Assembly: GCA_050011835.1 (NCBI GenBank)
Contig: JBEKII010000003.1
Coordinates: 39,842 to 103,841, forward strand
From: Minisyncoccia bacterium
GTDB lineage: Bacteria > Patescibacteriota > Minisyncoccia > Phycocordibacterales > Phycocordibacteraceae
DNA length: 64,000 bases
Direction of reading: 5' to 3'
Shown here in pieces: positions 21,066-64,000 of this stretch; positions within the stretch are counted from its first letter, which is position 1; the number at the start of each line of letters is the position of its first letter. The position numbers and the translations under genes were made by a program. Under the pieces are notes generated by a model. The model had not been told where the DNA came from. It worked only from the letters and a program-made list of their open reading frames with translations, and searched no databases.

Positions 21066-21095
21066 GAGGTGGAATATATCATACGGTAGCGTAAA

Positions 21096-22762: not shown

Positions 22763-23333
22763 ATATGTTAAATAAAATGAATTTCAACGAGCGTATCGGA
22801 TTCATACCCCGCAGTGTGATGAGTTCGAAGCCAAGATCGTCGAACATTCTCCGGATACTTTTTTCAGTAAAAAAGCGAAGATGTGTTGCATCAAGAATCC
22901 CCGCATCCCGGTACTGCCAATCTTTCTTTACCAAGAGATTCTTCAGGTTCCCCAGATGGCGGACGTTGGGAAGGGAAAATACCACGACACCGTTATCGCT
23001 CAATTTTTCTTTTAGCGCAAATAATACCGAATAAGGATCGGCGAGATGTTCAAGCACATCATTGCAGATAACGCAGTCAAAATACGCTTCAGGCAATTTC
23101 CCTAAAAGATTAGTTATATCTCCGACAAGAACCACATCTATTTTCCCCTGTGCGCGTGTTGCTACCGTTTCATTTATTTCAATACCCCACACTTCCGCCT
23201 CGCGCTGCTTTTTTACCAATGCACTAAAAACCCCCTCGGCACAGCCGATATCAAGTATTTTTTTTGCATCACGAGGAATAAACTCGAGCATCTCCGCACG
23301 AGTTTTTTTATAGTATCCGTTTTTTCTTTCCAC
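22686..23333 (-). CDS. Class I SAM-dependent methyltransferase
   Basis: ILDIGCAEGVF motif I. Methyltransf_11/23-like. 215 aa. Confidence 0.75.
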   Translation of the reverse strand: MERKNGYYKKTRAEMLEFIPRDAKKILDIGCAEGVFSALVKKQREAEVWGIEINETVATRAQGKIDVVLVGDITNLLGKLPEAYFDCVICNDVLEHLADPYSVLFALKEKLSDNGVVVFSLPNVRHLGNLKNLLVKKDWQYRDAGILDATHLRFFTEKSIRRMFDDLGFELITLRGMNPIRSLKFILFNIFTLGLLSDARHLQFAGVAKPKQAHQ

Positions 23334-23386
23334 AGATGATAGAATATCTTGAAATGAAAATGAAGCAAGGGAATAGTGAATAAGAT

Positions 23387-41519: not shown

Positions 41520-42220
41520 AGATAGGCGTCCTCGCAGATATTCACGGCAATAATATTGCGCTTCACGCGGTACTGGAAGAAGCGTTAAAAGAGGGCATTG
41601 ACCGGCTTTTTGTGCTTGGTGATTTCGTTGGTTATTACTACAGTCCGAACGAAGTACTTGCGCAACTGGCGAATTTTAAAACGACGATGATACGCGGCAA
41701 TCACGAAACGATGATGGAGGTGGCGCAACATGATGAAGTGTTAGCAAAAAAGATACGCGCGAAATACGGAAGCGGAGCATCGCTCGCGCTGGAAAACCTT
41801 TCTAAAGAACAGATTAAGCAGTTACGAGAGCTTCCAGAAACCGCCGAAATTGCTCTTGATGGCGTAACGTTCCTATTGTGTCACGGCTCTCCGTGGGACA
41901 CGAATGAATATATATATCCGGATGCGGATGAGACGACGCTCCGTGCGTGCGCATCGCAAGGGGCGGATTTCGTATTGCTTGGACACACCCATTATCCCTT
42001 GATGTATACCTATAAAGGCAAGGTCGTACTTAACCCGGGATCGGTAGGGCAGCCGAGGGATATAGGAAATATGGCGAGTTGGGCTATTATTGATACCGCG
42101 AATCGGAGCGTTATACAAAAACGGACAATGTTCGATACCGCTCCGATTCTGCAAGAAGCGCAACGCAGAGACCCTGCGGTTCCTTATCTCGTGGACGTGC
42201 TCCGAAGAAAAAAGATATGA
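41516..42220 (+). CDS. Metallophosphoesterase (calcineurin-like, YfcE/MJ0936 type)
   Basis: GVLADIHGN, GDFVGY, GNHE, LCHGSP, GHTH metal-binding motif series. Confidence 0.8.
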   Translation: MKIGVLADIHGNNIALHAVLEEALKEGIDRLFVLGDFVGYYYSPNEVLAQLANFKTTMIRGNHETMMEVAQHDEVLAKKIRAKYGSGASLALENLSKEQIKQLRELPETAEIALDGVTFLLCHGSPWDTNEYIYPDADETTLRACASQGADFVLLGHTHYPLMYTYKGKVVLNPGSVGQPRDIGNMASWAIIDTANRSVIQKRTMFDTAPILQEAQRRDPAVPYLVDVLRRKKI

Positions 42221-43170
42221 AAAAATATAAATCAATTTTGGTAACCGGTTGCGGAGGCGACATCGGCACCGGTATCGGCCGCATCCTAAAAGAAACTGGT
42301 CTCGTGCAAACGATTATTGGCGCCGATATACGTCCGGACAATGCAGGAATATGCGTTTTTGACACCTGTGATGTGCTGCCGAGGGCGGATGACTCGCAAT
42401 ATTTTGACGTTCTTGAACAGCTCGTTAAGAAATATTCTGTGGACTTGCTGATTCCTATGTCCGAGGCCGAGATACGTTTGTGGTATCGAAACGATTATTC
42501 CGAAACGTTTGCCGGAGTGCCGGTGGTTATGCCGAATCGTGAAGTGTTCGATGTCGCTATCGACAAGCTTGTTACCGCCGAGTTTTTAAAGTCACACGGC
42601 CTGCCGTATCCCTGGACTATGCTGGTTCGCGACGGGACCCCGCGCGCGTTCCCCTGCATCATTAAAAGTCGCGGTATCGGAAGCAAAGGAGGAGTTGAAA
42701 TTGTTGATAAATTCTCGGTTTCCTATTTTAGTGCCAAGCGCCCCGACAATATCTGGCAAGAATACCTTGAAGGCGAAGAGTACACCGCCGGCGTCTACGG
42801 TTGTCAGAATGGAGAAATACGAACTATCGTTATGAAGCGGAAACTTTCCGGCGGTATGACGGGCTACACTTCGGGAGGGGAAGTTGTTGACGAACCGGAC
42901 ATAACGCGCGTGCTCATGCAACTGGCGAAGGGACTTTCGCTTAAAGGCAGTATCAACGTCCAATTACGGCTCACAAAAAAAGGGCCTGTCATATTTGAAA
43001 TAAATCCGCGTTTCTCCAGCACCGTCGTATTCCGGCATAAACTGGGATTCAAGGACGTGGTGTGGTCCTTGGAAGAAAAGTTGGGATATCCCGCCTCTTC
43101 GTATGTGCCGCCCAAAGCGGGTACGAAATTCTACAAGGGCTATACGGAATACATCACATCCACATCTTGA
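42217..43170 (+). CDS. ATP-grasp domain protein
   Basis: IIKSRGIGSKGG, EEYTAGVY, and EINPRFSS (ATP-grasp Mg/ATP site). 317 aa. Confidence 0.75.
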   Translation: MKKYKSILVTGCGGDIGTGIGRILKETGLVQTIIGADIRPDNAGICVFDTCDVLPRADDSQYFDVLEQLVKKYSVDLLIPMSEAEIRLWYRNDYSETFAGVPVVMPNREVFDVAIDKLVTAEFLKSHGLPYPWTMLVRDGTPRAFPCIIKSRGIGSKGGVEIVDKFSVSYFSAKRPDNIWQEYLEGEEYTAGVYGCQNGEIRTIVMKRKLSGGMTGYTSGGEVVDEPDITRVLMQLAKGLSLKGSINVQLRLTKKGPVIFEINPRFSSTVVFRHKLGFKDVVWSLEEKLGYPASSYVPPKAGTKFYKGYTEYITSTS

Positions 43171-43245
43171 CAACAGCGTTTTAATGAGTATTCTATTTAC
43201 AGGCGCTCATTTTGTTATTAACATTAAAAAAGAAAGGGAGGTATC

Positions 43246-44310
43246 ATGAAAAAAAATACGGTCAAAATAGGAAAGCGCACGATTGGACCAGGACAGCCGG
43301 TCTTTATGATCGCAGAGATGTCCGGTAATCACAATCACAACGTCAGGCGTGCACATGCCATCGTTGATGCCGCCGCGGATGCCGGTGCCGATGCCCTTAA
43401 GCTCCAAACCTATACCGCCGATACCATCACGCTCAATTCCGACCGACCCGAGTTTCTCGTCACGTGGCAGAACAAAAAGCGTACGCTCTATGACCTTTAC
43501 CAAGAAGCGGGAACGCCGTGGGAATGGCATGCGGAGCTTTTCGCTCATGCGCGTGAACGCGGCATGATACCGTTCTCTTCGCCCTTCGATACGACCGCGG
43601 TTGACTTTCTTGAGCGACTCAATGTTCTTCTCTATAAAGTCGCCTCGTTTGAAGTCGTAGACATTCCGCTTCTTGAAGCGATAGGGAAGACGAAGAAACC
43701 GGTCATCATGTCGCGCGGGATGTCGAGTTTTGAAGAGCTCCAGCTCGCTATTGATACCCTGCGCAACGCCGGCACCAAAGATATCGTAATTCTGCATTGT
43801 GTAAGCGCATATCCGGCGAAGCCAGAGGATATGAATCTGAAAACGATTCCGTACATTGCGGAACGCTTTGGCATTCCGGCGGGATTATCAGACCATACGC
43901 TTGGCACTGATGTCGCCGTTGCTGCGGTAGCGCTTGGTGCTCGGGCGATAGAAAAGCACATGACACTCAAGCGTGCCGAGGGCGGTGTTGATTCGGAGTT
44001 CTCGCTTGAACCGGCCGAGTTCGCGGCGCTCGTCCAGTCAGCGCACATTGTAGAAAGTGCGCTTGGGAAACCGACTGATGCGCGCGGCGCGCGCGAAGAA
44101 GGAGAAGCCCGATTTCGCAAGTCGCTATTCGCGGCGGCCGATATCAAAAAGGGCGAGATCTTTACCGAGAAGAATATCCGCTCGGTGCGACCGAGCGCGG
44201 GCTTACCGTCCAAGTATTATCATCAAGTGTTGGGTAAGCGCGCAACGCGCGATATTTCCTTCGCATCGCCGCTTAAATGGAATATGGTCCAAGGCGGGCG
44301 GCGAAAATAG
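43246..44310 (+). CDS. pseI: Pseudaminic acid synthase (NeuB-family sialic acid synthase), PseI-like
   Basis: IAEMSGNHNHNV...AIVDAAADAGADALKLQTYTADTIT is colinear with PseI/NeuB N-terminal TIM-barrel motifs. C-terminal SAF domain. Confidence 0.8.
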   Translation: MKKNTVKIGKRTIGPGQPVFMIAEMSGNHNHNVRRAHAIVDAAADAGADALKLQTYTADTITLNSDRPEFLVTWQNKKRTLYDLYQEAGTPWEWHAELFAHARERGMIPFSSPFDTTAVDFLERLNVLLYKVASFEVVDIPLLEAIGKTKKPVIMSRGMSSFEELQLAIDTLRNAGTKDIVILHCVSAYPAKPEDMNLKTIPYIAERFGIPAGLSDHTLGTDVAVAAVALGARAIEKHMTLKRAEGGVDSEFSLEPAEFAALVQSAHIVESALGKPTDARGAREEGEARFRKSLFAAADIKKGEIFTEKNIRSVRPSAGLPSKYYHQVLGKRATRDISFASPLKWNMVQGGRRK

Positions 44311-44334
44311 CTTAAATGCAGACGTTTTCGTTTT

Positions 44335-44367
44335 CTGGCTCCTCGCCGCGAGGAGCCAGTTTCTTTT
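44335..44367 (+). terminator. Rho-independent terminator after pseI
   Basis: CTGGCTCCTCG-ccgc-GAGGAGCCAG followed by TTTCTTTT. Confidence 0.7.
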
Positions 44368-44401
44368 AGCGGCTCGTACAGGTTATAGTTACCATTACCA
44401 T

Positions 44402-46162
44402 ATGAAGAATACTTTGGCGACGCTCTGGCAGGCGTTTCGCAGATATCGATGGCACATCGCGGTACTCGTGGTGTTTGGGTTCTTGAGCGCCATACTAGAA
44501 GGCATCGGCATCAACGCTGTCATTCCGCTCGTATCTTTTTTCACTGGTGCAAGTAGCGGGCCGACTGATTTCATTACTCACACCATTCAAATACTGTTCG
44601 GCTTCTTCCACATACCATTCAGTTTCCGTTATCTGCTCGGTTTCATTTTTTGTCTATTCATATTGCGAGCATTGTCCGTCGTCGTGTTCGGCTACGTTCG
44701 CGGCTGGATAAGCGCGGACTTCCTCGGCAAAGAAAGCGAGGACGTGTTGCGCCGAACGCTCCTTTCTTCGTGGTCATTTTCGCTGAAGCAGAAAATAGGC
44801 ACCATGCACAATACACTCGTGCGTGACATTCAACAGACCGGAGCGCTTCTCGGCACGGTGGCGCAGATCGTTCAATCGTTCAGCGGTTTCCTTATGTATC
44901 TCTTAGTAACCATCAATATTTCACCGACCATGACGTTGTATACGCTTGGCGGCGGCGCCATCCTCGTGTTCTTTTTGCAGCCGCTTCTTCGGCGTGCCAA
45001 GCGTATCGCGGAGCAAGCGGCAGGAGTTGAGAAGCAGTTCGCGCAATTTCTAAGCGAGCACATCATCGGATTGAAATCCGTCAAAGCCGCCGGTGCGGAG
45101 CGCTCCGCTATTGCGGATGGCAACGAGCACATACAGCTCCTGCGTTCTCTTTCAATACGACAATCACTCGTTCATTCCATTAGCACCAGTTTCTTCCAGC
45201 CGTTCAGCATCGTCCTCGTCATCGTGCTTTTTTTGCTGACGTATCACACACCCTCGTTCAACGTCATTTCATTTGCGGCTTCATTGTATCTGATACAAAA
45301 AATGTTCACGTATCTCGAGTCCGGACAAGCCGCTCTGCAGTCGGTAGGCGAGCTGGTTCCGTATACACAGAATATCGCCGCGTTCAAGCGCAAGCTTGAT
45401 CTGCATCGCGAGCTATCCTCGGGCGATGCACCCTTTGCCTTTGCAAGAGAACTTTCTTTTAAAAATATCTCATTCTCATATGATGAAGACAAACCAATTT
45501 TAAGCGGAGTCAATTTTTCGATACGAGCAGGGGAAACAACGGGACTCATTGGACCTTCGGGCGCAGGGAAAACGTCAATTGCCGACCTCATCTTGCGTCT
45601 TTTCAAACCGGACGAAGGTTCACTATTACTTGATGGAGTGCCGAGCGAATCTATTGCTCTTGAGGCATGGCGCAAACATATCGGCTACGTATCTCAAGAT
45701 GTGTTCCTGCTCAATAGCTCTATTGAAGAAAACATTCGGTTTTATAATCAGACGTTGACCACTGAAGATATCGAGAACGCCGCAAAGCAAGCGAATATCT
45801 ATGACTTCATTAAGGAATTGCCTCAAGGATTCAAGACGGTAACGGGCGACCGAGGCGTCATGCTCTCGGGCGGACAGCGCCAACGTGTCGCGCTTGCCCG
45901 TGCGCTTGCCGGCAAACCAGCGCTTCTTCTATTGGACGAAGCGACGAGCGCTCTTGATTACGAATCAGAAAAACTTATCCATGAATCTATTCGAGCGCTT
46001 CATGGGGGTGTAACGGTACTTATCATTGCGCATCGTCCATCTACTGTCGCCGAGGCCGATACTATTCTCGTATTGAATCATGGTCACATAGAAGAGCGCG
46101 GTTCGCCGCAGGAACTTCTCCGAGACAGTGAGTCGTATTTCTACAAAATGCAGGAGGCGTAA
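44402..46162 (+). CDS. Fused ABC exporter (TMD-NBD; MsbA/PglK-like lipid-linked oligosaccharide flippase family)
   Basis: Start at the internal ATG (MKNTLATLWQ), because the 5' part of the track ORF overlaps pseI. Six TM helices. Walker A GPSGAGKTS, signature LSGGQRQRVALARAL, Walker B LLLDEATSALD. Confidence 0.85.
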   Translation: MKNTLATLWQAFRRYRWHIAVLVVFGFLSAILEGIGINAVIPLVSFFTGASSGPTDFITHTIQILFGFFHIPFSFRYLLGFIFCLFILRALSVVVFGYVRGWISADFLGKESEDVLRRTLLSSWSFSLKQKIGTMHNTLVRDIQQTGALLGTVAQIVQSFSGFLMYLLVTINISPTMTLYTLGGGAILVFFLQPLLRRAKRIAEQAAGVEKQFAQFLSEHIIGLKSVKAAGAERSAIADGNEHIQLLRSLSIRQSLVHSISTSFFQPFSIVLVIVLFLLTYHTPSFNVISFAASLYLIQKMFTYLESGQAALQSVGELVPYTQNIAAFKRKLDLHRELSSGDAPFAFARELSFKNISFSYDEDKPILSGVNFSIRAGETTGLIGPSGAGKTSIADLILRLFKPDEGSLLLDGVPSESIALEAWRKHIGYVSQDVFLLNSSIEENIRFYNQTLTTEDIENAAKQANIYDFIKELPQGFKTVTGDRGVMLSGGQRQRVALARALAGKPALLLLDEATSALDYESEKLIHESIRALHGGVTVLIIAHRPSTVAEADTILVLNHGHIEERGSPQELLRDSESYFYKMQEA

Positions 46163-46187
46163 AAGCTCGCCGTGTCTGTGGTATAGT

Positions 46188-48365
46188 ATGACTATCATGC
46201 GGGATAAGGAGATAGCGAAGCAGATTGCGAGGTGGGTGGCGCTCGGAGCGCTTTTCCTCATACCGCTCGCGCCGCTTATCGTTGCGAATTCGCTCTTTTT
46301 CCCCTTTATCACCGGGAAAGCGTTTTTCTTCAGGATTCTTGTAGAAATCGCTGTGTGTGCGTGGATAGTACTCGCATTTCTTGATAAAGAATATCGTCCG
46401 CGCTTTTCTTGGATTGGAGTTGCGGTGCTCGCTTTCGTCGCGTGGATGTTCATCTCGGATCTTTTCGCAATTAATGTTGCAAAGGCTTTTTGGAGCAATT
46501 TTGAGCGCATGGAGGGTTGGGTACTACTCATTCATCTTCTTGGTTTTTTCTTTGTGGCGAGCGCGGTGCTGCGGGTGGAAAAGAAGTGGCGTGCGTGGTT
46601 TCTCGCGTCTCTCGGTGTTTCTTGTGTCGTTTCCGCATACGCATTTCTGCAACTCGCGGGCACGCTGGCTATCCATCAAGGTTCTTCCCGCATTGACGCC
46701 ACGTTCGGCAATTCTGCGTATCTCGCGATTTATCTTCTTTTTAATACCTTCATCGCGCTTTGGCTCGCGTCAACTGAGAAGCGTCCATGGCTCAAATGGT
46801 CATTGTTCGCGCTCGCTTTCATAGAGGCAGTACTCATCTTTTTTACCGAGACGCGCGGAACAATCTTAGGATTTATTGGCGCGCTCGCGCTCGCCGCGCT
46901 TATCGCCGCGTGTACCGCGGGCAAACATATTCGTCGCATCGCCATCGGCGCGCTCGCGATTATTTTGATCCTTGCGGGCGGTTTTTATTTTGCGCGCAAT
47001 TCTAATTTCATACAGAACAATCACGTACTCCAACGCGTTGCCTCCATTTCGCTCTCTGATGGCCAGACGCGTTTCACCATCTGGCATATGGCATTTGAGG
47101 GGATGCTCGAACGTCCTCTTACGGGCTGGGGACAAGAGGGCTTCAATTATGTTTTCAATAAATATTATGACCCGTCGCTATATCAACAGGAGCCGTGGTT
47201 TGACCGTGCACATAACGCCTTCATTGATTGGCTCGCCGCAGGAGGCATTCCAGCATTTCTTCTCTATCTTTCACTTTTCGGCTCCGCCATTATATTGCTC
47301 TGGAAAAGTTCAACGCTCTCACGCCCGGAGCGTATCGTGCTTACCGCGGCGCTCGTCGGCTATGCCTGCCACAATCTTTTTGTTTTTGACAACCTTTATT
47401 CATATATATATTTCTTCGCGATACTCGCACTCATTGATTCGCAGGTTGCGCGGCCGATTGCCCGTTTTGAACGCGCGCCCGAACTTGCCGCGACAGATGG
47501 GATGACGTATGCTCTTCCGATCGGTGCCGTCGCCGCTTTTGCACTCGTTTGGTATATCAATATCCCCGGAATGCAAGTCGCGGCGAAGCTCATTACGGCG
47601 CTTTCGCCTTCTGCCGCCGGAATTGAAGGGAACATCGCTGCGTTTGAAGACCTTGCCGCACATCCGGCGTTCGCGGCGCAGGAAGTTCGCGAACAAATCA
47701 TTTCCTCCGCGGCAAGTATTGTGCAAAGTCAGTCGGCGACAGATGCTGAAAAACAGCAGGCGGTCTCGCTTGCCATAACCGAAATGCAAAAACAGGTTGC
47801 TGCGTATCCGCAAGACGCGCGCGAGCGGCTCCAACTCTCATATGCGTATCGCGTTGCGGGCGACAACGCCGATGCGCTCAAGCAAGTCCAAGCCGCGATT
47901 CTTCTCTCGCCGAATAAAGAGGAATTCTTTGTTGAAGCGGGCGCGATTGAATGGGATTTGAATGACGTCAAAGCGGCACAAACAGATTTCAATAAGGCGT
48001 ATGCGCTCGGTCCCTCGTTCTCAGATCTCGCCACGTATGCGGCCGCCGGCGATATTGCCGCCGGAGACCAGTCAACGGGCAACAAAATCCTGCTTAGTAC
48101 CTTCGGCACCACGACCCTTGACAGCGATATTCTCGCAGTTGCTTATTATCAAGCGAGAGATTGGCCGCAACTTATCGCCATTTGGAAATCGCGCGCGGAG
48201 AAGCCCGGCGCAAGTGTTGAGATCTGGTTTTCTCTCGCCTCGGCATATTATGTCGCGGGTGATGCTGCAGACGCCATTGCAACGATTCATGCCGCGGTCG
48301 CACTGTATCCGGACGCATCTTCCTCCGGCGCCGCCGCCATCAAACAAATAGAAGCAGGTAAATGA
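46188..48365 (+). CDS. O-antigen ligase-family (Wzy_C) polytopic membrane protein with C-terminal TPR-like domain; candidate O-oligosaccharyltransferase (WaaL/PglL/WsaB family)
   Basis: About 12 TM helices containing the Wzy_C-type segment FIEAVLIFFTETRGTILGFIGALALAAL. ~300 aa C-terminal soluble region with TPR-like helical repeats (..SYAYRVAGDNADALKQVQAAILLSPNKEEFFVEAGAIEWDLNDVKAAQTDFNKAYALGP..). Confidence 0.6.
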   Translation: MTIMRDKEIAKQIARWVALGALFLIPLAPLIVANSLFFPFITGKAFFFRILVEIAVCAWIVLAFLDKEYRPRFSWIGVAVLAFVAWMFISDLFAINVAKAFWSNFERMEGWVLLIHLLGFFFVASAVLRVEKKWRAWFLASLGVSCVVSAYAFLQLAGTLAIHQGSSRIDATFGNSAYLAIYLLFNTFIALWLASTEKRPWLKWSLFALAFIEAVLIFFTETRGTILGFIGALALAALIAACTAGKHIRRIAIGALAIILILAGGFYFARNSNFIQNNHVLQRVASISLSDGQTRFTIWHMAFEGMLERPLTGWGQEGFNYVFNKYYDPSLYQQEPWFDRAHNAFIDWLAAGGIPAFLLYLSLFGSAIILLWKSSTLSRPERIVLTAALVGYACHNLFVFDNLYSYIYFFAILALIDSQVARPIARFERAPELAATDGMTYALPIGAVAAFALVWYINIPGMQVAAKLITALSPSAAGIEGNIAAFEDLAAHPAFAAQEVREQIISSAASIVQSQSATDAEKQQAVSLAITEMQKQVAAYPQDARERLQLSYAYRVAGDNADALKQVQAAILLSPNKEEFFVEAGAIEWDLNDVKAAQTDFNKAYALGPSFSDLATYAAAGDIAAGDQSTGNKILLSTFGTTTLDSDILAVAYYQARDWPQLIAIWKSRAEKPGASVEIWFSLASAYYVAGDAADAIATIHAAVALYPDASSSGAAAIKQIEAGK

Positions 48366-49381: not shown

Positions 49382-49532
49382 TTTTTTGCAAAGTTATCCA
49401 CACATATTTTTTTTCGGCACAAAAAGGTTTTTTTATGCGCGATAATGACAAGTAGAAACGTTTGCGCAATAAAAAATTGGTTCGTGCGCAGACGGGTCGA
49501 CATATCAACCTTTATCTTAATTCGCAACCACC

Positions 49533-54692: not shown

Positions 54693-55496
54693 ATGGATGA
54701 AATTCTTATAGAAGAGAAGAAGTATGTATCGTCAAAACGAGCCGCCAAGATGACCGGTTATGCAAAAGATTATATTGGCCAATTGTGTCGGGAGGGACGA
54801 GTGCCGGCGCGGCTTATTGGCCGAAATTGGTATGTTCTTGAAGCGGCTATCCAAGACCATAAATTCGGCAAGACTGAAATTAAGTCAAAAGAGCCTGTCA
54901 AAGCCATATCGCCTGCGCTAGCGGGAACACCGGTTCTTTCGCCCACATGGGAGTCCCCACGCTATGAAGCGTCTTCGGAAGAACTGCTTCCTTCTATGAA
55001 TCGCCTTAAGGACACAGAGAAAGATATAGTATCTGATGATACATCAGTAAATAACGAAGGAAAACAGAACATTTCAGAGCACATACAAGATTCCTGGAAG
55101 GCGTGGTTTGATCGTTTCAATCATATGGGGGATGCGGTTGAGCCCATTGTCTCTACAATGCCGGAAGTGCCAGAAAAGATAGAAGAAAAACCAGAAATAG
55201 AAGAAAGCGCGAATATAAATGTGCCCATTCATGCTCTATATCGACCGTTCTATCAGTCGCCTCCAGAAGAACTCCTGCCGCGTAACATAGTGGCAAAACC
55301 GCTAAGTAATTTGCGAGAGACACGAACGACACAAAGGGGGAGTAAGAGAGCGACAAGAATAATTCAAGTATTTGGGACATTACTTGCGGTACTGGCAGCT
55401 GCTTTCGCGGTAATTGGAAGTGGATATTTTGATAAATATGTATTATCGAGTAGCCCAACGGAAATAATAGCCGGTGTAGAATTATATAATAAGTAG
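54693..55496 (+). CDS. Excisionase/MerR-type HTH (HTH_17-like) N-terminal domain protein with C-terminal transmembrane helix, 268 aa
   Basis: Start at the internal ATG (MDEILIEEK). VSSKRAAKMTGYAKDYIGQLCREGRVPARLIGRNWYVLEAAI is HTH-like. Acidic/Pro-rich linker. C-terminal hydrophobic segment IIQVFGTLLAVLAAAFAVIGSG. A TATACT box lies 7 nt upstream of the ATG. Confidence 0.55.
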   Translation: MDEILIEEKKYVSSKRAAKMTGYAKDYIGQLCREGRVPARLIGRNWYVLEAAIQDHKFGKTEIKSKEPVKAISPALAGTPVLSPTWESPRYEASSEELLPSMNRLKDTEKDIVSDDTSVNNEGKQNISEHIQDSWKAWFDRFNHMGDAVEPIVSTMPEVPEKIEEKPEIEESANINVPIHALYRPFYQSPPEELLPRNIVAKPLSNLRETRTTQRGSKRATRIIQVFGTLLAVLAAAFAVIGSGYFDKYVLSSSPTEIIAGVELYNK

Positions 55497-56203
55497 CATA
55501 TATACAAGTTTTCTCGTCTCGTTTAGACAATCTTTTATAAAAGACACGAAATTTTATAATAAGATGATTTGATAGAATGTGTATGGTGTGTATGATCAAA
55601 ATCATCAAATTAAAGCCGTTTTGTAAAAAATGACTGTTTAGAGGTAATAAATTGTCATTAAAAAGGTCATTTAAGTGATTATAAATTTAAATAGATAAAT
55701 TATATGTATATAGTGTCGTAAAATGTTTTAATGATTGTGCGACATATCAAAAATAATTGAGTAATTAAATCTAATTATTGATTCAGTTTCGTATACGCGA
55801 CATAATTAATGAATACGCTATATATTAGTGGTATTAATTATATCGCCACCCCCAATTTTTTGTGAAGTAAATTGTACGAGGAATATAAAGCATTTACTTG
55901 AAGGTGATAAAGCGAATTTTTACAGATTAATTTTCAAGATCTCGACTCACTAGTGTTTTTCAAGAGATAAAAAGCCTATTTAACGTCTCTCACAGACCAT
56001 TTCTCTTACTTTCTTTCGTTATTCCGCATGTTTTTCGGCAATGTTAGAAGAACTTATGCGTATAAAATTTCAGCTTCCGTGTAAATTTAAGATATCTTGA
56101 AATCGCTCTTAATGTCAGGCAGAACAAAAATATCTTATCCACATATCTCCTTTAGGAAATGACGAAATGATAAGTTATTATTTAGTTAATTCGGCTATCC
56201 GAC
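55497..56203. other. About 700 bp strongly AT-rich non-coding region
   Basis: Visibly AT-rich (runs such as TTAAATAGATAAATTATATGTATATAG) against a ~55% GC background. No ORF of 60 codons or more except an implausible antisense one. Confidence 0.6.
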
Positions 56204-59200
56204 ATGGATCCAATCTTTGAAAAAAATTTGATAACGACAAAATATGCTGGAGAACTTTCTGGATATACGCCAGATTATTTGGCACGCCTTGCTCGTTCGG
56301 GGAAAATTGCTGGCAAGAGAATTGGACATAGCTGGCTCATTGATAGTGAATCACTCACGCACTTTTTAGATCAGCAGGGAGATCGCAAGGCCGATTATGC
56401 TCGCGCGCTCGCACGTGCGCGCGAAGTTGAATATCGCGAGTACCACTCGCTCCTACGCGGTGTTGGGAAGACATTATCAACTCCATTCACCGTACCTTCC
56501 TTAAATATCGGGGAAAGTTCATTACGCTCACAAATCATTTCCTTGTCAGTGGCATTTCTTGTCGTTATGTTCGGTGCATTTTTGGCACATGCAACGCCGT
56601 TATTGCAATTCGCAACAGAGACGATGACGGTTGCTCGCGAAGCCGCATCCGGATTCAACGCAACATTTGGAGATATTCCATCGCGCATCGCACTTCGGAT
56701 TAATACAGTGTCGACAGAGATGCGCATACATCCATCGTATACCGTGGCGTCTGCCGTGTTCCCATCTGCGCGCAGTGCGTCGCCGTTTCTCGCTGATCTC
56801 AACCTCTCATCATTTCAGCATGTGATAATTTCTAAAAATATATTCATACGTTCTACCGCGTTCGCATTTGTGCCGAATAATAATGTTCCGTTGAATTTGA
56901 ATATAGCTCCTGCACGGATATTGATATTTACTGTCGGGAATATACAAGCGTCCCTGTTTGCCGTATATGCATTTATTGCAACACCATCGCGTGTCGCGAA
57001 TGCATTCGCGAGTACCTATATCGCGGTTGGCAATGAAACATATGCCGCTATCATCGCATCGCTCTCTGACTATCATTTGCTCATTGAACATTCAGGAATA
57101 AAGACGCTCGCATATGCCACTGTAACACGCGATGCGTTCGCAATCGCGCCCCATTTTATTGACCAAGCGAATCTTGCATTTGGCAACCTGATCATCACGA
57201 CGACGCATGCGGCAATACGCGCTGATGTGGCGACCGCATATGGTCTCTCTGCAGCGTTACCAGCGAGTGCGCATGTCGCGCTCGCGCTTGTTGTCGATAC
57301 CGGCGATGTGCTCGCCGGCGCCACCGCGCGTTCTCCCGCACTCGCTATCGAGGCTTATCTGCGCGCAACGGGGATATTTGCGGCATGTGCACCCGCACTT
57401 GCGCAAGCGGTCTTTGCTGCGGAATATACCGGAGCATCGCATTTTGTCGCACTCATTAATGCGGCTTCTCGGCAATATCTAGAAGCACTCATGACCACCG
57501 GTCATCTTGCACTTACCCTGCGCAGCTTTAGCGAAGCAGGGTATGCCAGCACAGTAAATTCCATTACTCGTGCGCCCGCCGCCCTTGAGGACTTTTATCT
57601 TGGCGTGCTTGGCAAAAGTGCATACGCATTCAATTCCCTCTTTCATTTATCAAAAGCTACCAATGCGCTCGCTGCAGCCGCGCCGACACTTTCAGTAGGC
57701 GAGCAAATAGCGCTTATCACATATGAAACAATCCACGGCTTCTTAAATTCAACGAGCAGCATGCTAGCGACACTCTTCGGACCGCCGCCATCCATCGTGA
57801 TGCCCGCAACAGTAGCGGTGAAAGTCAGAACATCAGCTCCGGTCATCGCTTCAACGACACTGAACACCTCGCGTATCACAGTCACAAATTATCCGACCTA
57901 CACAACCGTCGTAAACGGTGCATCCGAGGACTTTGTGAATCAATCTCTCGCTTCTCTTCGCAATAATGTTCTCGCAACAGTCGCCGGCATGATTCAGCCA
58001 GTTACCGTGCAGACGGCGACTAACGAAAATGCCATTCAGCAAGTGAATATGATTCAGGATCTTTCCAATCTTATCGTGCGCAACGGCGATTTCCGCGGCG
58101 GAACACTCTCCGGTGCTGCTTCAGTGTCTGCGACAAGTGGTTCTTTTAACAATCTGACCGCGGGCGGCCTTTCTCTCGGTTCTCTCGACGGTCCACTTCA
58201 GGCGAACAGTGGAGTCGTCTCTGCCACCACTTCTATCGGCGTCCTTTATGGTGGCACCGGTCTTTCTATTGCACCTGCCTATGGCCAGCTTCTTGTCGGT
58301 GATACAAACGGCGAATATGTGCTCACTGCAACTAGCTCGCTTGGCATCAATAGCGGAATCTGGGGAAAGATCACTGGCTCACTCTCGGACCAGACAGATC
58401 TGCAGAGCGCGCTTAACGCAAAACTTTCTCTCACTGATTGGTTTGCGACAACGTCCGCGCCGCAGCTCACGACACTCGCGAATCTCATAAATGCAACGAC
58501 TACGAATCTCAATATCGGAAGTACCATCACCGGTGCCGGACTCGCCTCTTGTTCCGGTGCCACGAGCAAACTTTTATGGAATTCTTCGACCGGGCGGTTC
58601 ACCTGCGGTGTTGACGCCGGATCGAGTGGCAGTGGCATCACCGGACTTGGGGCGGAATATTCTCCATATCAAACTGATGCAACGCAGACATTCGCCACAT
58701 CAAGCGACATGAACATTGGTTTGATTATCACCTCGAATTCAGACATTCATACCTTCACGCCGATTTGGATAGGGACTCTCGCAGACAATCGCATCGCAAG
58801 TGCGTCCAATTGGAACTCGGCGTATAACAACGAGATTACCTCGGCTTCATATCCGCTCTCCATTTCCTCCAATGCCATTTCGTCAGCATTTGGCACAACA
58901 ACGACAATAGGCGTGGGGACGAACAAGCTTCTCGCCGTAGACTCCAATGGCATCATCATCGCTTCTTCAACTATCGGAAATGGTCAACTTCAGAATAATT
59001 CAATTACGGTAACCACTGCATCTCCTTTGGGTGGGGCGGGGACTATTCCCCTCGGCGGAACACTGGCTCTTACTTGCGCAGGATGTCTCACCTCACTCGC
59101 AGGTGCGGCTTCTTCTACTCTGCTTTCTGACGCAAATACTTTTTCAGGTATAAACAATTTCACCAACTCTTCAAGCAATTTTTCAGGAACATGGCAAACT

Positions 59201-62200
59201 TTCGCGCCAAGTCATTTCTCAACTTTCGCTTATCCGTTCCCGAACAGCGCGACTTCTTCCATCGTCACTTTTTCATCCGCGCCCGTTCTCGCTTCACTCT
59301 CCGGCCTCATCGCAGGAAATACAGGGACTCTGTATCAAGTTGCCACCTCTACAATCTCATTTGGCTATGCCTCTACGACACAAATCGGAAGCACGGGCTC
59401 CGCATATTTTGCAACGTCTGGCGGCAACGTCGGCGTCGGGACGACGTCTCCGTATGCTCTTCTTTCTATCGGGGGAAATGTCGTCATTGGAGCTTCCACC
59501 GCTGGCGGCACATTAGGGAATCTTACTCTTCCGGCACTCGGCACTCCTGCCGGAGCATTTCTTGCGGTGAATTCAAACGGCCAAGTCATCGCTACAACGA
59601 CTTCTTATTCAATGCTCCCGCAGATAAATGCGGGATACATTCTCGGCAACAACACAGGAAATACGGCGAACGTAACTTCGTTCGCCACTAGCACGTTATT
59701 CGGTGCAAGTTCGTACGGGAACGTGCTGATGTACGGCAGCTCTGTGCCGGCGTGGGCCGCTACCTCCACTCTCTTCTCTGGCACGACAGGGCAGTTTCCA
59801 TATTTCAGTGCCTCGGGCACGCTCTCCCCGACATCTTCCATCTTCCTCTCTGGTTCCAATATCGGCATCGGGACGACATCTCCATATGCTCAACTATCCA
59901 TCTCAAACTCTGTAACAAGTCCCGTGAACCAGACGCTTTTCTCCATCGCTTCCACGACAGCGGGCACATCAACCTCAACCTTGATGACCGTGCTGGCGAA
60001 TGGAAATGTCGGCATTGGGACGGCAACTCCAAATAACACCATTCAAGTGACAAATTTAATCAATTTCGACAATATCAATTACAATACCGCTTTAGGTTAT
60101 CAAGCGGGATTAAATGTTGTATCAGGGCCTAATCAAGGCACTTTTGTTGGGTATCAGGCCGGAATGGGCAGTTCAACTGCGAGCGATTCTGGTACCAATA
60201 ATGCAGCCGTTGGGTATCAATCTCTTTATTCCAACACTTCCGGTTCCTATAACTCCGCCGAAGGATATGGAGCCCTTTATTTCAACACTACTGGTTCCTT
60301 CAACTCTGCTCATGGAGAAGCCGCCCTCTATAATAATACCTCTGGTTCCTATAACTCCGCCGAAGGATATGAAGCTCTTTTCTACAATTCCACTGGCAAC
60401 TCCAATTCTGCTCAGGGATATAATGCTCTTTCCTTCAACACTACTGGCCTCTATAGCTCCGCACTTGGAGCCAATGCCGGCACCTACATTTCCGGTGGCT
60501 CAACTGCCAATCTTGTTTCCAACAGTTCTCTTTTTCTCGGCTACAATTCGATGGCTTTAGCGAGTGGCGATACCAATGAAATAGTTATCGGAGCCAGTGC
60601 GACAGGAATCGGATCAAATACCGTTACTTTGGGTAATAGCTCAATTCTAACCACGGCGTTGAAAGGCAAGGTCGGTATCGGAACGACGACGCCCGACCAG
60701 AAGTTATCAATCTATTCAGCGGCAACTCCTTCGCTTGAATTCTCTCTCGGTGCAGGGGCGGGAAATCAGTGGACGGAAGGAATTGACACCACGAACGGAA
60801 ACTCTTTTGAGGTCGCCTCATCTTCTGCGCTCGGAACTAATCCGAGATTTGTTGTCAATGGAAGCGGCAACATCGGCATCGGAACAACGAGTCCGTATGC
60901 TCTTCTTTCTATCGGAGGAAATGTTGTCATTGGAGCTTCTACCGCCGGCGGCACACTTGGAACTCTGACACTACCCGCACTTGGAACGGTAACGGGGACA
61001 TTCCTCGCAGTGAACGGAACGGGAACTGTTATCGCCACAACAACCCCTCTCCTCTCAAATGCCGGCAACTGGGCAGGAACGTGGCAGAGTTATTCTCCGT
61101 CTAATTTTTCAACTTTCGCTTATCCGTTCCCAAGCAACGCAACTTCAACTTTTCTAACGTTCAGTGGTGGTCTATCAACAACTTATGCCTCAACAACAGC
61201 AGTTTCAGGAACTTCACTCTGCATCGGAACAGATTGCCGTACTGTATGGCCGACAGGCGGCGGTTCGGTTGGTTCAGGTACAACAGGTCAATTTCCTTAC
61301 TACGCGGGTGCAGGTTCGACACTCACTGCGACTTCCTCTATCTTCCTCGCATCAAATGGATTTATAGGAATTGGCACAACAAGCCCACAAGGCCTCCTCG
61401 ATGTGGTCGGTAATTCAAACTCGGTCTCGACTGCATTCACGGGAGCGCGGGCCATGTCCATCATCAACACTGACACGACCAATGGAAATATGGCGGGATT
61501 TGATTTCAGGACGGATGACTTGGCCGGGACACTCACGACAGGAACAAAAATTTTGGCTATTTTTAACAGCCACACGGCAAGCCATGTGAGCGCCGACATG
61601 ACATTCCGAACGAACAATGCGGGGACGATAGGCGAGGTGATGCGATTGACGAGTACGGGGAATGTGGGTATCGGAACAACATCCCCCTCTTCGCTCTTGT
61701 CTATTTCTAACTCCGCCACTACCGCTGCCAACACACCGCTCTTCACCATCGCCTCCACGACCGGCGGCACCGCCACGACAACGTTGTTTTCAATAAGTAG
61801 TCAAGGACAGTTACAAGCGCCTTACTATGCCGTTGCCGCAGGAACTTTTCTCGCAGCAGATGCTTCAGGGCGCATCATTGCCACGACAACTCCGACGGGA
61901 GGCAGTGGCTCCGGCACTGTCGGTTCGGGCACGACAGGGCAGTTCCCGTACTACGCTGCAGGCGGTACGACGCTTACTGCGACCTCATCACTATTCCTAG
62001 CGGCGAATGGCTATGTTGGGATCGGCACGGGAAGCCCGGGTACTTTACTTGACGTGGAGGGCGGGAATATCAATATTGGCACAGGAAATGCGTATCAAAT
62101 TGGCGCCAAGAACGCAATCATAGCGTCTTCGGCAGCCAATAACTGGTTCTTCGGCAATTCCGGCAACTTAAGTACCTCAGGAACCGGCAATACGGGAGAA

Positions 62201-64000
62201 GGCGAAACCGCACTTCTCTCACTCTCATCAGGCGCCAGCAATACCGCCAATGGATATGGTGCCCTTTATAGCAATACGTCAGGAAGCAATAACACCGCCA
62301 ATGGGTTTAACGCTCTTTATAACGATGCGTTAGGAAGCAATAGTACCGCCATTGGGTATCAGGCCGGAAATGGAGCTGGCGGTACCTCAATCACGAGTAG
62401 CACATTACTTGGATACGGTTCAGGATATTCACTAGGGAATAGCACAGGGAACATTTTGCTCGGTTATCAGGCGGGTTATGACCTCGCGACCGGTTCAAAT
62501 AACATTGTTATTGGCTATAACACCGACCTGCCTTCGACGACGCAAACTTCTACTCTGGACATTGCAAATCTCATTTATGCAACTGGTTTGACTAATTTCT
62601 TATCTCCGTCATCAGCAGCAGGAAGCGGCTACGTTGGCATCGGCACTACGTCTCCTTATTCTCTGTTATCCATTTCCAACTCCGCGACCACCGCGGTCAA
62701 CACGCCTCTCTTCACCATCGCCTCTACGACCGGCGGTACGGCCACCTCCACGCTCTTCAGCGTCGGCAGTAGCGGTCTCACTACCATAGGAGATAGTTCG
62801 GGAACAGGCGACGCAAATTTCCAATTCGCCTCCGATGCCAACGCGTGGGATATTGGATACAACTCTACCGATAAATCCTTCGACATCGCATCCTCAACGA
62901 GCTTGTCGAACACGGTGGCCTTTACCATCGCTAAAGGAACTACCACTAATAATGTCGGTATCGGAACGACGAGTCCCAATACTGCGCTCGAAGTCCATGG
63001 AGAAATCAGGCAAACGCAATGTACGGCGGCAGGTGCACTTAACGCCGATGCGTCAGGAGATATCATCTGCTCGGTTTCTTCCGAGCGATTCAAGCATAAT
63101 ATCCAATCTCTCACCTCTGCAGACGGACTTGCGGAAGTAGACGCGCTCACTCCAGTCAGTTTCGTGTTTAATCCGGATATGAATATGGGAAGTTCTACGC
63201 AAGTGGGCTTCATCGCCGAGCAAGCAGATCTCGTGGACCCGCGCCTCGTTTCGGTGGATGGGACGGGACAAATTGAGGGATTCCGTTATGACAATTATAC
63301 GGCGATATTGACGGAGGCCGTGCAGGAATTAGATGCGCGGACAAATTGGATGGAGGAGGCAACGAGTACGGCGGGGATGCCCCCGGACGTTCTGACGGTC
63401 GACGGGAAGAGTGTTGACCTCTACAAACTCGCGACGTATAACCTTGCGAGCGTGCAGACGCTTGCGGCGGCAATTGATGCGCAAAATATACGCCTGACTT
63501 CGCTCGAGGCGCGCGTTACCGCGCTCGAAAACGGTGTGGTAAGTACAACGAGCGGCTCGCCGATAACACTTTCTACCTCTACGCTTGCAAGTGCCCTGAA
63601 CGGATTCGGTGCACTGATCCAAAAGGGCATCGCGCAGTTTGGTATTCTCGTTGCTGACCAATTTGTCGCAGCGACCAATTCAGCCGGTACATCCTCGGCA
63701 GGCACCGTTACTATTCTTGCAGGAAATACCGTTGCGCAAGTTAATAATGCCTATGTTCTGCCATCATCAAAAATATTTGTGACACTTACTGCGTCAACCA
63801 CGGGCTCGTGGTACATCAGCGATAAACAAAATGGTTCTTTCAGGTTCGTACTCTCCACGCCGCAACCGAACGATGTCTCGTTTGATTACTTCCTTGTCCA
63901 GACCGAAGGCCAAATCGCGACGTCAACTCCGAACGGCTCATCCGGAAGTGAAACTTCGGCGTCTTCCGATACGACTCCGCCCACCATCACACTTCTTGGT
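56204..64000 (+). CDS. Giant surface/fibre-like protein (more than 2598 codons, open at the 3' window edge). N-terminal HTH-like + TM module, Gly/Thr/Ser/Asn-rich repeat modules, peptidase S74-like intramolecular chaperone motif region.
   Basis: Hand translation from the ATG at 56204 finds no stop through 64000, which explains its absence from the ORF track. The frame is closed by a TAG at 56183-56185 just upstream. The N-terminus MDPIFEKNLITTKYAGELSGYTPDYLARLARSGKIAGKRIGHSWLIDSESL is paralogous to the 54693 gene. The motif ..SSERFKHNIQSL...VGFIAEQADLVDPRLV...GFRYDNYTAILTEAVQELDART.. lies near residue ~2300. Confidence 0.7.
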   Translation, partial: MDPIFEKNLITTKYAGELSGYTPDYLARLARSGKIAGKRIGHSWLIDSESLTHFLDQQGDRKADYARALARAREVEYREYHSLLRGVGKTLSTPFTVPSLNIGESSLRSQIISLSVAFLVVMFGAFLAHATPLLQFATETMTVAREAASGFNATFGDIPSRIALRINTVSTEMRIHPSYTVASAVFPSARSASPFLADLNLSSFQHVIISKNIFIRSTAFAFVPNNNVPLNLNIAPARILIFTVGNIQASLFAVYAFIATPSRVANAFASTYIAVGNETYAAIIASLSDYHLLIEHSGIKTLAYATVTRDAFAIAPHFIDQANLAFGNLIITTTHAAIRADVATAYGLSAALPASAHVALALVVDTGDVLAGATARSPALAIEAYLRATGIFAACAPALAQAVFAAEYTGASHFVALINAASRQYLEALMTTGHLALTLRSFSEAGYASTVNSITRAPAALEDFYLGVLGKSAYAFNSLFHLSKATNALAAAAPTLSVGEQIALITYETIHGFLNSTSSMLATLFGPPPSIVMPATVAVKVRTSAPVIASTTLNTSRITVTNYPTYTTVVNGASEDFVNQSLASLRNNVLATVAGMIQPVTVQTATNENAIQQVNMIQDLSNLIVRNGDFRGGTLSGAASVSATSGSFNNLTAGGLSLGSLDGPLQANSGVVSATTSIGVLYGGTGLSIAPAYGQLLVGDTNGEYVLTATSSLGINSGIWGKITGSLSDQTDLQSALNAKLSLTDWFATTSAPQLTTLANLINATTTNLNIGSTITGAGLASCSGATSKLLWNSSTGRFTCGVDAGSSGSGITGLGAEYSPYQTDATQTFATSSDMNIGLIITSNSDIHTFTPIWIGTLADNRIASASNWNSAYNNEITSASYPLSISSNAISSAFGTTTTIGVGTNKLLAVDSNGIIIASSTIGNGQLQNNSITVTTASPLGGAGTIPLGGTLALTCAGCLTSLAGAASSTLLSDANTFSGINNFTNSSSNFSGTWQTFAPSHFSTFAYPFPNSATSSIVTFSSAPVLASLSGLIAGNTGTLYQVATSTISFGYASTTQIGSTGSAYFATSGGNVGVGTTSPYALLSIGGNVVIGASTAGGTLGNLTLPALGTPAGAFLAVNSNGQVIATTTSYSMLPQINAGYILGNNTGNTANVTSFATSTLFGASSYGNVLMYGSSVPAWAATSTLFSGTTGQFPYFSASGTLSPTSSIFLSGSNIGIGTTSPYAQLSISNSVTSPVNQTLFSIASTTAGTSTSTLMTVLANGNVGIGTATPNNTIQVTNLINFDNINYNTALGYQAGLNVVSGPNQGTFVGYQAGMGSSTASDSGTNNAAVGYQSLYSNTSGSYNSAEGYGALYFNTTGSFNSAHGEAALYNNTSGSYNSAEGYEALFYNSTGNSNSAQGYNALSFNTTGLYSSALGANAGTYISGGSTANLVSNSSLFLGYNSMALASGDTNEIVIGASATGIGSNTVTLGNSSILTTALKGKVGIGTTTPDQKLSIYSAATPSLEFSLGAGAGNQWTEGIDTTNGNSFEVASSSALGTNPRFVVNGSGNIGIGTTSPYALLSIGGNVVIGASTAGGTLGTLTLPALGTVTGTFLAVNGTGTVIATTTPLLSNAGNWAGTWQSYSPSNFSTFAYPFPSNATSTFLTFSGGLSTTYASTTAVSGTSLCIGTDCRTVWPTGGGSVGSGTTGQFPYYAGAGSTLTATSSIFLASNGFIGIGTTSPQGLLDVVGNSNSVSTAFTGARAMSIINTDTTNGNMAGFDFRTDDLAGTLTTGTKILAIFNSHTASHVSADMTFRTNNAGTIGEVMRLTSTGNVGIGTTSPSSLLSISNSATTAANTPLFTIASTTGGTATTTLFSISSQGQLQAPYYAVAAGTFLAADASGRIIATTTPTGGSGSGTVGSGTTGQFPYYAAGGTTLTATSSLFLAANGYVGIGTGSPGTLLDVEGGNINIGTGNAYQIGAKNAIIASSAANNWFFGNSGNLSTSGTGNTGEGETALLSLSSGASNTANGYGALYSNTSGSNNTANGFNALYNDALGSNSTAIGYQAGNGAGGTSITSSTLLGYGSGYSLGNSTGNILLGYQAGYDLATGSNNIVIGYNTDLPSTTQTSTLDIANLIYATGLTNFLSPSSAAGSGYVGIGTTSPYSLLSISNSATTAVNTPLFTIASTTGGTATSTLFSVGSSGLTTIGDSSGTGDANFQFASDANAWDIGYNSTDKSFDIASSTSLSNTVAFTIAKGTTTNNVGIGTTSPNTALEVHGEIRQTQCTAAGALNADASGDIICSVSSERFKHNIQSLTSADGLAEVDALTPVSFVFNPDMNMGSSTQVGFIAEQADLVDPRLVSVDGTGQIEGFRYDNYTAILTEAVQELDARTNWMEEATSTAGMPPDVLTVDGKSVDLYKLATYNLASVQTLAAAIDAQNIRLTSLEARVTALENGVVSTTSGSPITLSTSTLASALNGFGALIQKGIAQFGILVADQFVAATNSAGTSSAGTVTILAGNTVAQVNNAYVLPSSKIFVTLTASTTGSWYISDKQNGSFRFVLSTPQPNDVSFDYFLVQTEGQIATSTPNGSSGSETSASSDTTPPTITLLG
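59440..61030 (+). repeat. Intragenic duplicated modules within the giant ORF (about 100-140 bp units at ~85% identity)
   Basis: ACGTCTCCGTATGCTCTTCTTTCTATCGGGGGAAATGTCGTCATTGGAGCTTCCACCGC.. at 59440 matches ACGAGTCCGTATGCTCTTCTTTCTATCGGAGGAAATGTTGTCATTGGAGCTTCTACCGC.. at 60880. TTCAACTTTCGCTTATCCGTTCCC occurs at ~59221 and ~61112. GGCACGACAGGGCAGTT(T/C)CC occurs at ~59790 and ~61930. A further SISNSATTA.NTPLFTIASTTGGTAT module occurs at ~61690 and ~62670. Confidence 0.6.

Follow-up and report, generated by a model that had tools for sequence, protein, structure and literature searches.

The question raised by this locus is what is encoded by a giant open reading frame (ORF) that begins at position 56204 of a 64,000-nucleotide stretch of DNA from a Minisyncoccia bacterium (GenBank assembly GCA_050011835.1, contig JBEKII010000003.1, positions 39,842 to 103,841) and leaves that stretch before reaching a stop. 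The stretch at its full length is called the window here, and positions are those of the window, on the plus strand unless stated otherwise. The ORF is a real gene of an ultrasmall (Patescibacteria) bacterium and specifies a protein of 2,791 residues. Its product is probably a membrane-anchored surface fibre, which resembles the tail fibres of phages and carries a self-cleaving assembly domain. The fuller reading, in which the gene is the orthologue of a lineage-specific giant cell-surface fibre of a Minisyncoccia/Paceibacteria (Kaiserbacteria-like) bacterium and works by the mechanism set out below, is given a probability of roughly 60%.

Within the window the ORF spans 56204–64000, where it is cut by the window end. 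Translation of frame +2 from the ATG at 56204 gave 2,599 sense codons and zero stops, as the original prediction, made from the DNA letters, had claimed. At ~50% GC the chance of such a run is estimated arithmetically as ~(61/64)^2599, or ~1e-54, and the longest ORF in the other frames across this region is 185 aa. Its absence from the ORF track is explained by the lister, which drops any ORF extending past the end of the source. There is an in-frame TAG 18 nt 5' of the ATG, which is the first start codon after it, and the choice of this start is backed by the N-terminus MDPIFEK..., which is kept in more than 30 homologues. The full-length product was sought among 5.8 billion public proteins, and a 100%-identical protein of 2,791 aa (P0001) was found on a 118.8-kb JGI metagenome contig, where it bears the NCBI name 'immunoglobulin-like domain-containing protein [Minisyncoccia bacterium]'. 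This puts the true stop 192 codons outside the window: the proposal to look for it in the full contig leads 576 nt past the window end and to a gene of 8,376 nt.

The peptides that had been quoted from the translation were all located: GIGTTSPYALLSIGGNVVIGASTAGGTLG in two copies, NSAEGYGALYFNTTGSFNSA, TGQFPYY, and SSERFKHNI at residue 2292, followed by VGFIAEQ and LTEAVQEL. Neither an in-frame stop nor a chimeric assembly, the two things thought able to undo the frame, was found on re-translation and repeat analysis. No DNA repeat within the gene exceeds 181 nt, and the copies are only 63–78% identical, which makes a chimera of collapsed repeats unlikely. In addition, both ends of the protein are colinear in alignments with orthologues from independent assemblies, and on these grounds the chimera was rejected.

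The first clue to the nature of the protein is its Peptidase_S74 intramolecular chaperone (IMC) domain, which covers residues 2292–2385 (63077–63358) and was identified by Pfam and by a family profile. The PF13884 match to residues 2292–2349 scores 33.6 bits against a cut-off of 22. When the family S74 profile was compared with the PDB, it matched a tail fibre (8jov, 7e-12), gp37 of phage S16 (6f45, 2e-10) and the ICA domain of MyRF (7dc3, 5e-8), with further matches to T5 pb1 (8hqz, 1e-5) and the GA-1 appendage (3gud). The segment S2292-S-E-R-F-K2297 aligns with the catalytic SDERLK, SDRRIK and SGIEYK motifs of solved S74 domains, which places the predicted nucleophile at Ser2292 (codon 63077–63079), its partner at Lys2297 (codon 63092–63094) and the predicted cut N-terminal to Ser2292. 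The S74 domain proposed from the motifs alone is thus genuine, and it is internal, as had also been noticed, with 500 residues following it.

A profile of the C-terminal region (A4) aligns through the MyRF stalk plus ICA domain at E=5e-10. Nine sequences of the A4 alignment carry an S74-type N-half, with either the canonical SDxRLK or a degenerate STRxAK motif; among them the Ser is kept in 9/9 and the Lys in 8/9, P0002 having Glu. In other orthologues (P0004, P0006, P0014, P0016 and others) the position of S74 is taken by a GADYAEYF...GIVS...GQV segment, which is a Peptidase_G2 'IMC autoproteolytic cleavage domain' (32.1 and 25.7 bits, cut-off 25). S74 and G2 are unrelated phage-type self-cleaving chaperones, and because they alternate at one site, self-cleaving assembly would itself be the selected property; the pattern argues that the chaperone at this position is a conserved, selected feature of the family. 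Whether S74 or G2 is present, the same module of coiled coil, beta domain and Ig domains always follows, which argues that the C-terminal 500 residues may be a conserved pro-region or a detachable cap.

This module is the best-conserved part of the protein, with up to 62% identity. It opens with an invariant segment of the A4 alignment, PPDVLTVDGKSVDLYKLATY...LEARVTALENG, a heptad coiled coil of residues 2393–2444 (63380–63535) that gives weak matches to designed trimeric coiled coils and DUF7310. In four homologues (P0005, P0013, P0018 and P0002) the coiled coil stands directly after a short S74 N-half, and for this reason it looks like the helical second, C-terminal half of an IMC domain. 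A conserved beta-rich domain follows (residues 2450–2570; 63551–63913), recognised in the A4 alignment and modelled as strands at low confidence, with zero Pfam or PDB matches. The last part, residues 2591–2791, is a pair of DUF5011/Bact_surface_Ig-like domains, the first of which starts at 63974 and reaches the window end at 64000, so that the pair lies mostly beyond the window. Both copies are matched by PF16403 (127.5 bits) and were modelled at a predicted local distance difference test (pLDDT) score of 85–94. Foldseek matches for these domains (Big_3, chitinase Ig, SraP and Rib) include Ig folds of adhesin type, and the S-layer proteins SbsB, EA1 and Sap were matched too.

The models were made with AlphaFold2 (AF2) as monomers of the N-terminal 662 aa and the C-terminal 556 aa, and they are confident only for the two Ig domains and for a helix-turn-helix (HTH) at the other end of the chain. 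Structure prediction on segments, which had been proposed as a check, therefore paid off for these parts; the remaining modelled parts came out at low confidence. The HTH occupies residues 10–58 (56231–56377), is of the excisionase/MerR winged type and is predicted to be cytoplasmic. HTH_17 (PF12728) scores 20.4–20.5 bits in the giant protein, under the cut-off of 27, and reaches 28.5 and 27.1 bits in the orthologues P0014 and P0016. The model of residues 10–60 has a pLDDT of 84–88 and a beta-alpha-alpha-hairpin-alpha topology. Foldseek returned Pukovnik Xis, Tn916 Xis, TraN, RacA, GlnR and BldC with probabilities of 0.97–1.0 and superpositions of 1.8–2.6 Å rmsd over 48–58 residues, with E values of only 0.1–0.3 owing to the long query. 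By these models the domain has a winged-helix fold of the Xis/MerR N-domain type, which is a fold of DNA-binding type.

Beyond the HTH lies a single transmembrane (TM) helix at residues 108–130 (56525–56593), which is taken to be a signal-anchor. With a Kyte-Doolittle peak of 2.29 it is the only strong hydrophobic helix in 2,791 aa, and it is conserved in the family. Its flanks carry three Lys and Arg residues on the N-side and one on the C-side, which weakly favours an N-in orientation. The HTH and membrane helix of the original prediction are thus borne out by the orthologue scores, by AF2 and Foldseek and by this hydrophobic segment. The helix leads into an Ala-rich stalk (residues 131–560; 56594–57883), predicted from composition, AF2 and the orthologue alignment to be all-helical and extracellular. 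The stalk contains 16–22% Ala, is 38–56% identical across orthologues and is modelled as long helices at low confidence; zero Pfam or PDB matches were found for it, the PDB search with a profile of the N-terminal module included. We infer that it is an oligomeric helical stalk. A highly conserved stalk-to-shaft junction, YPTYTTVV...VNMIQDLSNLIVRNGDFRGG, is visible at residues 563–660 (57890–58183) in the A1 consensus and its invariant columns.

Between the junction and S74 extends a Ser/Thr/Gly/Asn-rich shaft (residues 661–2291; 58184–63076), which was delimited by composition and motif counts. It is nearly uncharged, and both its length and its sequence differ between orthologues. The shaft contains 10 loop motifs of the form (V/I)G(I/V)GTxxPxxxL, against 0 in 500 shuffles, and 11 if the looser [VI]G[IV]GT is counted; one capping-loop-type motif, VGIGTTSPNTAL, lies 41 residues upstream of S74, where the AF2 monomer is of low confidence. 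The GIGTTSP motif of the shaft resembles the beta-helix 'capping loops' that precede S74 in the fibres of Bdellovibrio and in MyRF, both considered below. In addition, the shaft has three TGQFPY modules, a weak match to the tail-spike family phrog_4636 (residues 1362–1473) and two blocks of 17-residue repeats found by repeat analysis: a tandem (51-nt) block of the NSAEGYGALYFNTTGSF type at 60173–60478 and a second at 62243–62359. A PDB sequence search with residues 560–1570 returned nothing useful.

The repeats bear on the possibility that the protein is a YadA-like trimeric autotransporter adhesin. Like YadA family members it is long, probably trimeric and built of short Asn/Ser/Ala/Gly-rich repeats (NSAxGYxAL in the 17-residue units), and one distant homologue, P0033, has a YadA_stalk match of 27.2 bits, just short of the cut-off of 28.4. 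However, the anchor is an N-terminal TM helix rather than a C-terminal beta-barrel translocator, the C-terminus being Ig-like (two DUF5011 domains), and Patescibacteria are regarded as monoderm, without an outer membrane. No Hep_Hag or YadA_head match was found in Pfam at E<=1. Membership of the YadA/Hep_Hag group was rejected on the missing match and the missing beta-barrel anchor, and with it went the resemblance to YadA heads that had been suggested; we regard this identity as next to impossible. Among the profile searches that had been proposed, Peptidase_S74 was thus detected, HTH_17 was reached in orthologues and falls below threshold here, and Hep_Hag and YadA_head gave nothing.

How could such a chain become a fibre? 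In the proposed mechanism the TM helix would act as a type II signal-anchor, keeping the HTH in the cytoplasm while ~2,660 residues pass to the outside. Three chains would then assemble, with S74 nucleating and proof-reading the trimerisation of the beta-helical shaft that precedes it; this step is modelled on phage tail fibres, MyRF and the Bdellovibrio fibres. Next, S74 would cut the chain in front of Ser2292, leaving a membrane-anchored fibre of ~2,290 residues with its variable distal end exposed, and the conserved C-terminal 500 residues would represent a pro-region that is either removable or non-covalently retained. The fibre would finally serve in attachment to, or recognition of, the host cell that these episymbionts are thought to need. 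From the analogous systems we infer the trimeric state and the folds of the stalk, S74 unit, coiled coil and beta domain, and the same analogies lend a presumptive character to the type II orientation, trimerisation, cleavage and host-attachment role. The sequence evidence as a whole supports the original prediction of a cell-surface fibre that is probably matured by autoproteolysis.

Several observations weigh against this account. The Asp that follows the nucleophile in the canonical SDxRLK motif is replaced by Ser, to give SSERFK. The AF2 monomers are of low confidence for the stalk, the shaft-proximal S74 unit, the coiled coil and the beta domain, and the fold searches with these models were uninformative. 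Cleavage would detach from the fibre the very module that is best conserved, a loss for which the model accounts poorly. A strongly conserved cytoplasmic HTH of DNA-binding type is superfluous for an adhesin. Finally, the position of the gene at a single, core-genome syntenic locus would equally fit a structural role in the envelope.

The distribution of the family and the surroundings of the gene decide whether it belongs to the cell or to a phage. A profile of the N-terminal 660 aa matched 255 clusters (50% identity) at E<=1e-30 among 1.84 billion representatives, and the module occurs in ~55 species-level metagenome-assembled genomes labelled Kaiserbacteria, Paceibacterota, Patescibacteria or Minisyncoccia. 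Homologues are 1.5–7.2 kaa long, the longest match being 7,214 aa; their ends are conserved, and a middle of 1,000–6,000 residues varies in length and sequence. Upstream of the giant gene the window encodes, in order, ATP-grasp, NeuB, an ABC exporter, Wzy_C+TPR, MurB, SecA, Obg, GatB and a 267-aa HTH_17-like protein. The order MurB, SecA, Obg, GatB, small HTH-TM gene, giant gene was found in 5/5 loci, and the giant gene is therefore a core chromosomal gene. In four homologues on long contigs, a gap of 400–800 bp separates the small HTH gene from the giant gene, and GAPDH, RpiB, Rpe and transketolase lie downstream in 3/4 of them.

One alternative is that the ORF is a tail-fibre or tail-spike gene from a prophage or from phage DNA that contaminates the bin. 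The S74 and G2 domains, the weak PHROG match and NCBI names of homologues such as 'tail fiber domain-containing protein' speak for it. Phage fibres and tailspikes (K1F endosialidase, 3GW6; T5 pb1, 4UW8/8HQZ; S16 gp37, 6F45; GA-1, 3GUD; phi29-type Peptidase_G2) share the following with it: S74 and its Ser-Lys dyad align, G2 serves as the alternative chaperone in orthologues, the shaft is repetitive and Ser/Thr/Gly-rich, and a conserved chaperone is combined with a variable receptor-binding region. In contrast to these proteins, the giant product has an internal chaperone, no virion-attachment domain and an N-terminal HTH-TM anchor that sets it in the cell membrane and is incompatible with a virion fibre. 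Its gene is flanked by SecA, Obg and GatB upstream and, elsewhere, by GAPDH, RpiB, Rpe and transketolase downstream, with no phage genes. Profile scans of IMG/VR viral contigs found none with the N-terminal module or the coiled-coil/beta module, and the generic DUF5011 Ig domains are the only part of the protein common to those contigs. A prophage origin was rejected on the housekeeping synteny and the viral-contig scans; the gene is chromosomal, not phage, and the phage alternative as a whole is very improbable.

The same synteny would also fit a structural envelope protein. In this reading the product is a fibre or stalk with a housekeeping function, which may organise the S-layer or cell wall, anchor it, or set the spacing of the cell surface. 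Every genome examined has one conserved locus amid housekeeping genes, and this, the strongly conserved N- and C-terminal modules and Ig-like domains that also match SbsB, EA1 and Sap are all in keeping with such a role. Against these stand the 1,000–6,000 highly variable residues of the middle, which are typical of exposed, diversifying recognition structures, and the fact that phage-type IMC domains have so far been tied to receptor-binding fibres and spikes. Furthermore, L005, the locus of one related genome, has a second giant paralogue in tandem directly after the first (16456–24199; 3,115 aa, with S74 and DUF5011), which also speaks against a purely structural role. We regard an envelope role as unlikely and prefer the surface fibre.

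A different question is posed by the cytoplasmic HTH and by what lies in front of the gene. The protein encoded immediately upstream (267 aa; 54693–55496) consists of a paralogous HTH, which is recognised by the family N-terminal hidden Markov model at E ~1e-14, an acidic linker with the conserved motifs STWESPRYE and QDSWKAWFDRF, and a C-terminal TM helix. It occupies the same position in 5/5 syntenic loci, and its HTH is nearly invariant. Directly after its stop, an invariant TTTCTCGTCTCG (55510–55521) is the same in 5/5 loci and opens a terminator-like inverted repeat in some of them. Homologues of this partner in other genomes have a conserved upstream motif of their own, ..GTGCACA..AGCCGAGATATGnnTATACT, with the ATG 7–9 nt further on, an arrangement suggestive of a leaderless-type promoter.

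Most of the spacer in front of the giant gene cannot be aligned from one genome to the next, apart from a gap-free block of 62 nt that extends to the ATG (...TAGGnAATGCCGAAATAnTAAGTTATTATTTAGTTAATTCGGCTATCCGAC|ATG) and has 17 invariant columns in 49 genomes; together with a TTATCCACA box at 56135–56143 it makes up an element of 56135–56206. The box, TTATCC(A/C)CA in the family, stands at -70 or -80, two positions that are about one helical turn apart. TTATCCACA equals the consensus of the DnaA box in E. coli. It is found in perfect form only twice in the 64-kb window, the other copy being at 49394–49402, in the MurB-SecA intergenic region before SecA. In the same MurB-SecA spacer, a minus-strand ORF of 33–44 aa is called in L001, L002 and L005. 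No purine-rich Shine-Dalgarno sequence lies directly before the ATG of the giant gene.

An RNA function for the leader was considered in the form of a GCCGAA/TTCGGC hairpin and rejected: RNAalifold gave a weak fold, and the hairpin lacks covariation, with 84.0% paired, compared with 83.9% after shuffling. Neither Rfam nor tRNA scans found anything in the leader or in the window at large. As the hairpin lacks covariation and Rfam gave no match, the element behaves like a DNA-level promoter or operator, and the 62-nt block with its box is a candidate for one. An origin of replication (oriC), suggested by the AT-rich 700-bp spacer, the perfect DnaA box and a turn in cumulative GC skew at ~56 kb, was likewise rejected. 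The spacer holds one box only and the flanking genes are all co-oriented; in addition, the skew change coincides with the codon composition of the giant gene, and a skew maximum would mark the terminus rather than the origin.

These features raise the possibility of a membrane-spanning contact sensor or membrane-tethered transcription factor, in which the fibre senses host contact or tension and the HTH then binds DNA. The HTH would respond to a signal or be released by regulated proteolysis, its target could be, for example, the element before its own gene, and such a function, loosely analogous to MyRF, ToxR/CadC and RsgI-type systems, could coexist with a role in adhesion. No other small part of the family is as invariant as the HTH, which has many residues unchanged across 36 homologues and is of the DNA-binding excisionase/MerR fold. 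It is tandemly duplicated in P0029 and P0035, and a second HTH-TM protein is always encoded immediately upstream. The 62-nt element and its box recur in 49 genomes and show no RNA covariation, which is the behaviour expected of a DNA site bound by protein. It is also an S74 domain that sets the transcription factor MyRF free.

Comparison with MyRF (7DC3) shows where this idea meets difficulty. Both proteins unite a domain of DNA-binding type, a TM helix and an internal S74/ICA domain, which in MyRF follows a beta-helical stalk with capping loops and in the giant protein would follow a comparable one. However, in MyRF the order is DNA-binding domain, ICA, TM; the first two are on the same side of the membrane and cleavage frees the DNA-binding domain. 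In the giant protein the order is HTH, TM, ..., S74, and the TM helix (108–130) separates the HTH (10–58) from S74 (2292–2385), so that S74 cleavage on the opposite side of the membrane cannot release the HTH. The DNA-binding folds are also unrelated (Ndt80 in MyRF, excisionase winged HTH here), and no site-2 protease or other release mechanism was identified. Moreover, the cytoplasmic HTH of bitopic proteins can bind proteins instead of DNA, as in RodZ. A sensor role in general is unlikely. Slightly more doubtful still is the specific proposal that the fibre, its own HTH and the paralogous small HTH-TM protein together form an outside-to-chromosome contact regulator that binds the 62-nt element and its TTATCCACA box. 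If true, episymbiotic Patescibacteria would possess a new kind of membrane-tethered regulator that depends on contact, in which an interchangeable, self-cleaving module (S74 or G2) arms or sheds the distal part.

For the surface fibre, the closest known analogues are phage tail fibres and the mosaic adhesive trimer (MAT) fibres of Bdellovibrio bacteriovorus, the MAT family being the nearest in function. MATs are cellular phage-fibre-like proteins (Caulton et al. 2024, PMC10769870) with a capping-loop motif, V-G-G/N-pi-x-x-P-x-x-x-L, that is found in MyRF too (PMC10769870). As in the giant family, they are tail-fibre-like surface proteins of a bacterium that lives on other bacteria, they divide into autoproteolytic S74 (SDxxxK) members and members without it, and they join a conserved N-terminal module to variable fibres and tips. 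Their capping loop is close to the VGIGTxxPxxxL of the giant protein, in which the strict MAT pattern has 0 matches, against 10 for the related (V/I)G(I/V)GTxxPxxxL. There are also differences. MATs have a signal peptide and a ~130-aa beta-rich N-domain, whereas the giant family has an HTH, a TM helix and a ~430-aa helical stalk. The S74 of MATs is C-terminal, whereas here it is internal with 500 conserved residues after it, and members of the giant family without S74 carry Peptidase_G2 instead. MATs are ~1 kaa long against 1.5–7.2 kaa, and Bdellovibrio has 21 paralogues, in contrast to one syntenic locus per genome. The cytoplasmic DNA-binding-type domain, the internal S74-or-G2 chaperone, the conserved post-chaperone module and the conserved cis-element are new with respect to MATs, for which they have not been reported.

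Further observations concern the homologues and the neighbourhood. Intein/Hint domains lie within some orthologues (P0017, P0018 and P0027). In the contig of the window itself (L001, 18373–28376, just past the window end), the giant gene is succeeded by genes for four large proteins of secreted type: one of 460 aa that has a signal peptide and beta-helix-like repeats and starts within the overlap with the stop of the giant gene, a 920-aa NosD/Beta_helix protein, a 949-aa fn3 protein and a 981-aa fn3+GHL15+PG_binding protein. This stretch looks like an inserted island of surface proteins, because in L002–L004 GAPDH directly follows the giant gene. At 42217–48365 the window holds the ATP-grasp, NeuB (nonulosonic-acid synthase), ABC exporter and Wzy_C+TPR cluster, 8–14 kb 5' of the giant gene with housekeeping genes between; the Wzy_C+TPR gene adjoins MurB in L002 and L004 too. 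The ectodomain of the giant protein is 26.6% Ser+Thr. Wzy_C proteins include protein O-oligosaccharyltransferases, so that glycosylation of Ser/Thr-rich surface proteins by this cluster is conceivable.

The giant protein is already present in databases under generic names, and NCBIfam has zero matches for it. Full-text searching gave no description of the family and no link between MAT fibres and Patescibacteria, and a preprint on giant genes does not cover it. To our knowledge, how Paceibacteria, Kaiserbacteria and most non-Saccharibacteria Patescibacteria recognise and hold their hosts is essentially obscure, and type IV pili are the only device that has been studied. The giant locus offers a concrete, conserved and easily recognised candidate for a host-attachment organelle: a membrane-anchored fibre made of the parts of phage receptor-binding proteins, with a variable middle and a self-cleaving chaperone. 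As such, it would extend the idea of cellular, phage-fibre-like adhesins, known from the MATs of Bdellovibrio, to a very different, ultrasmall lineage.

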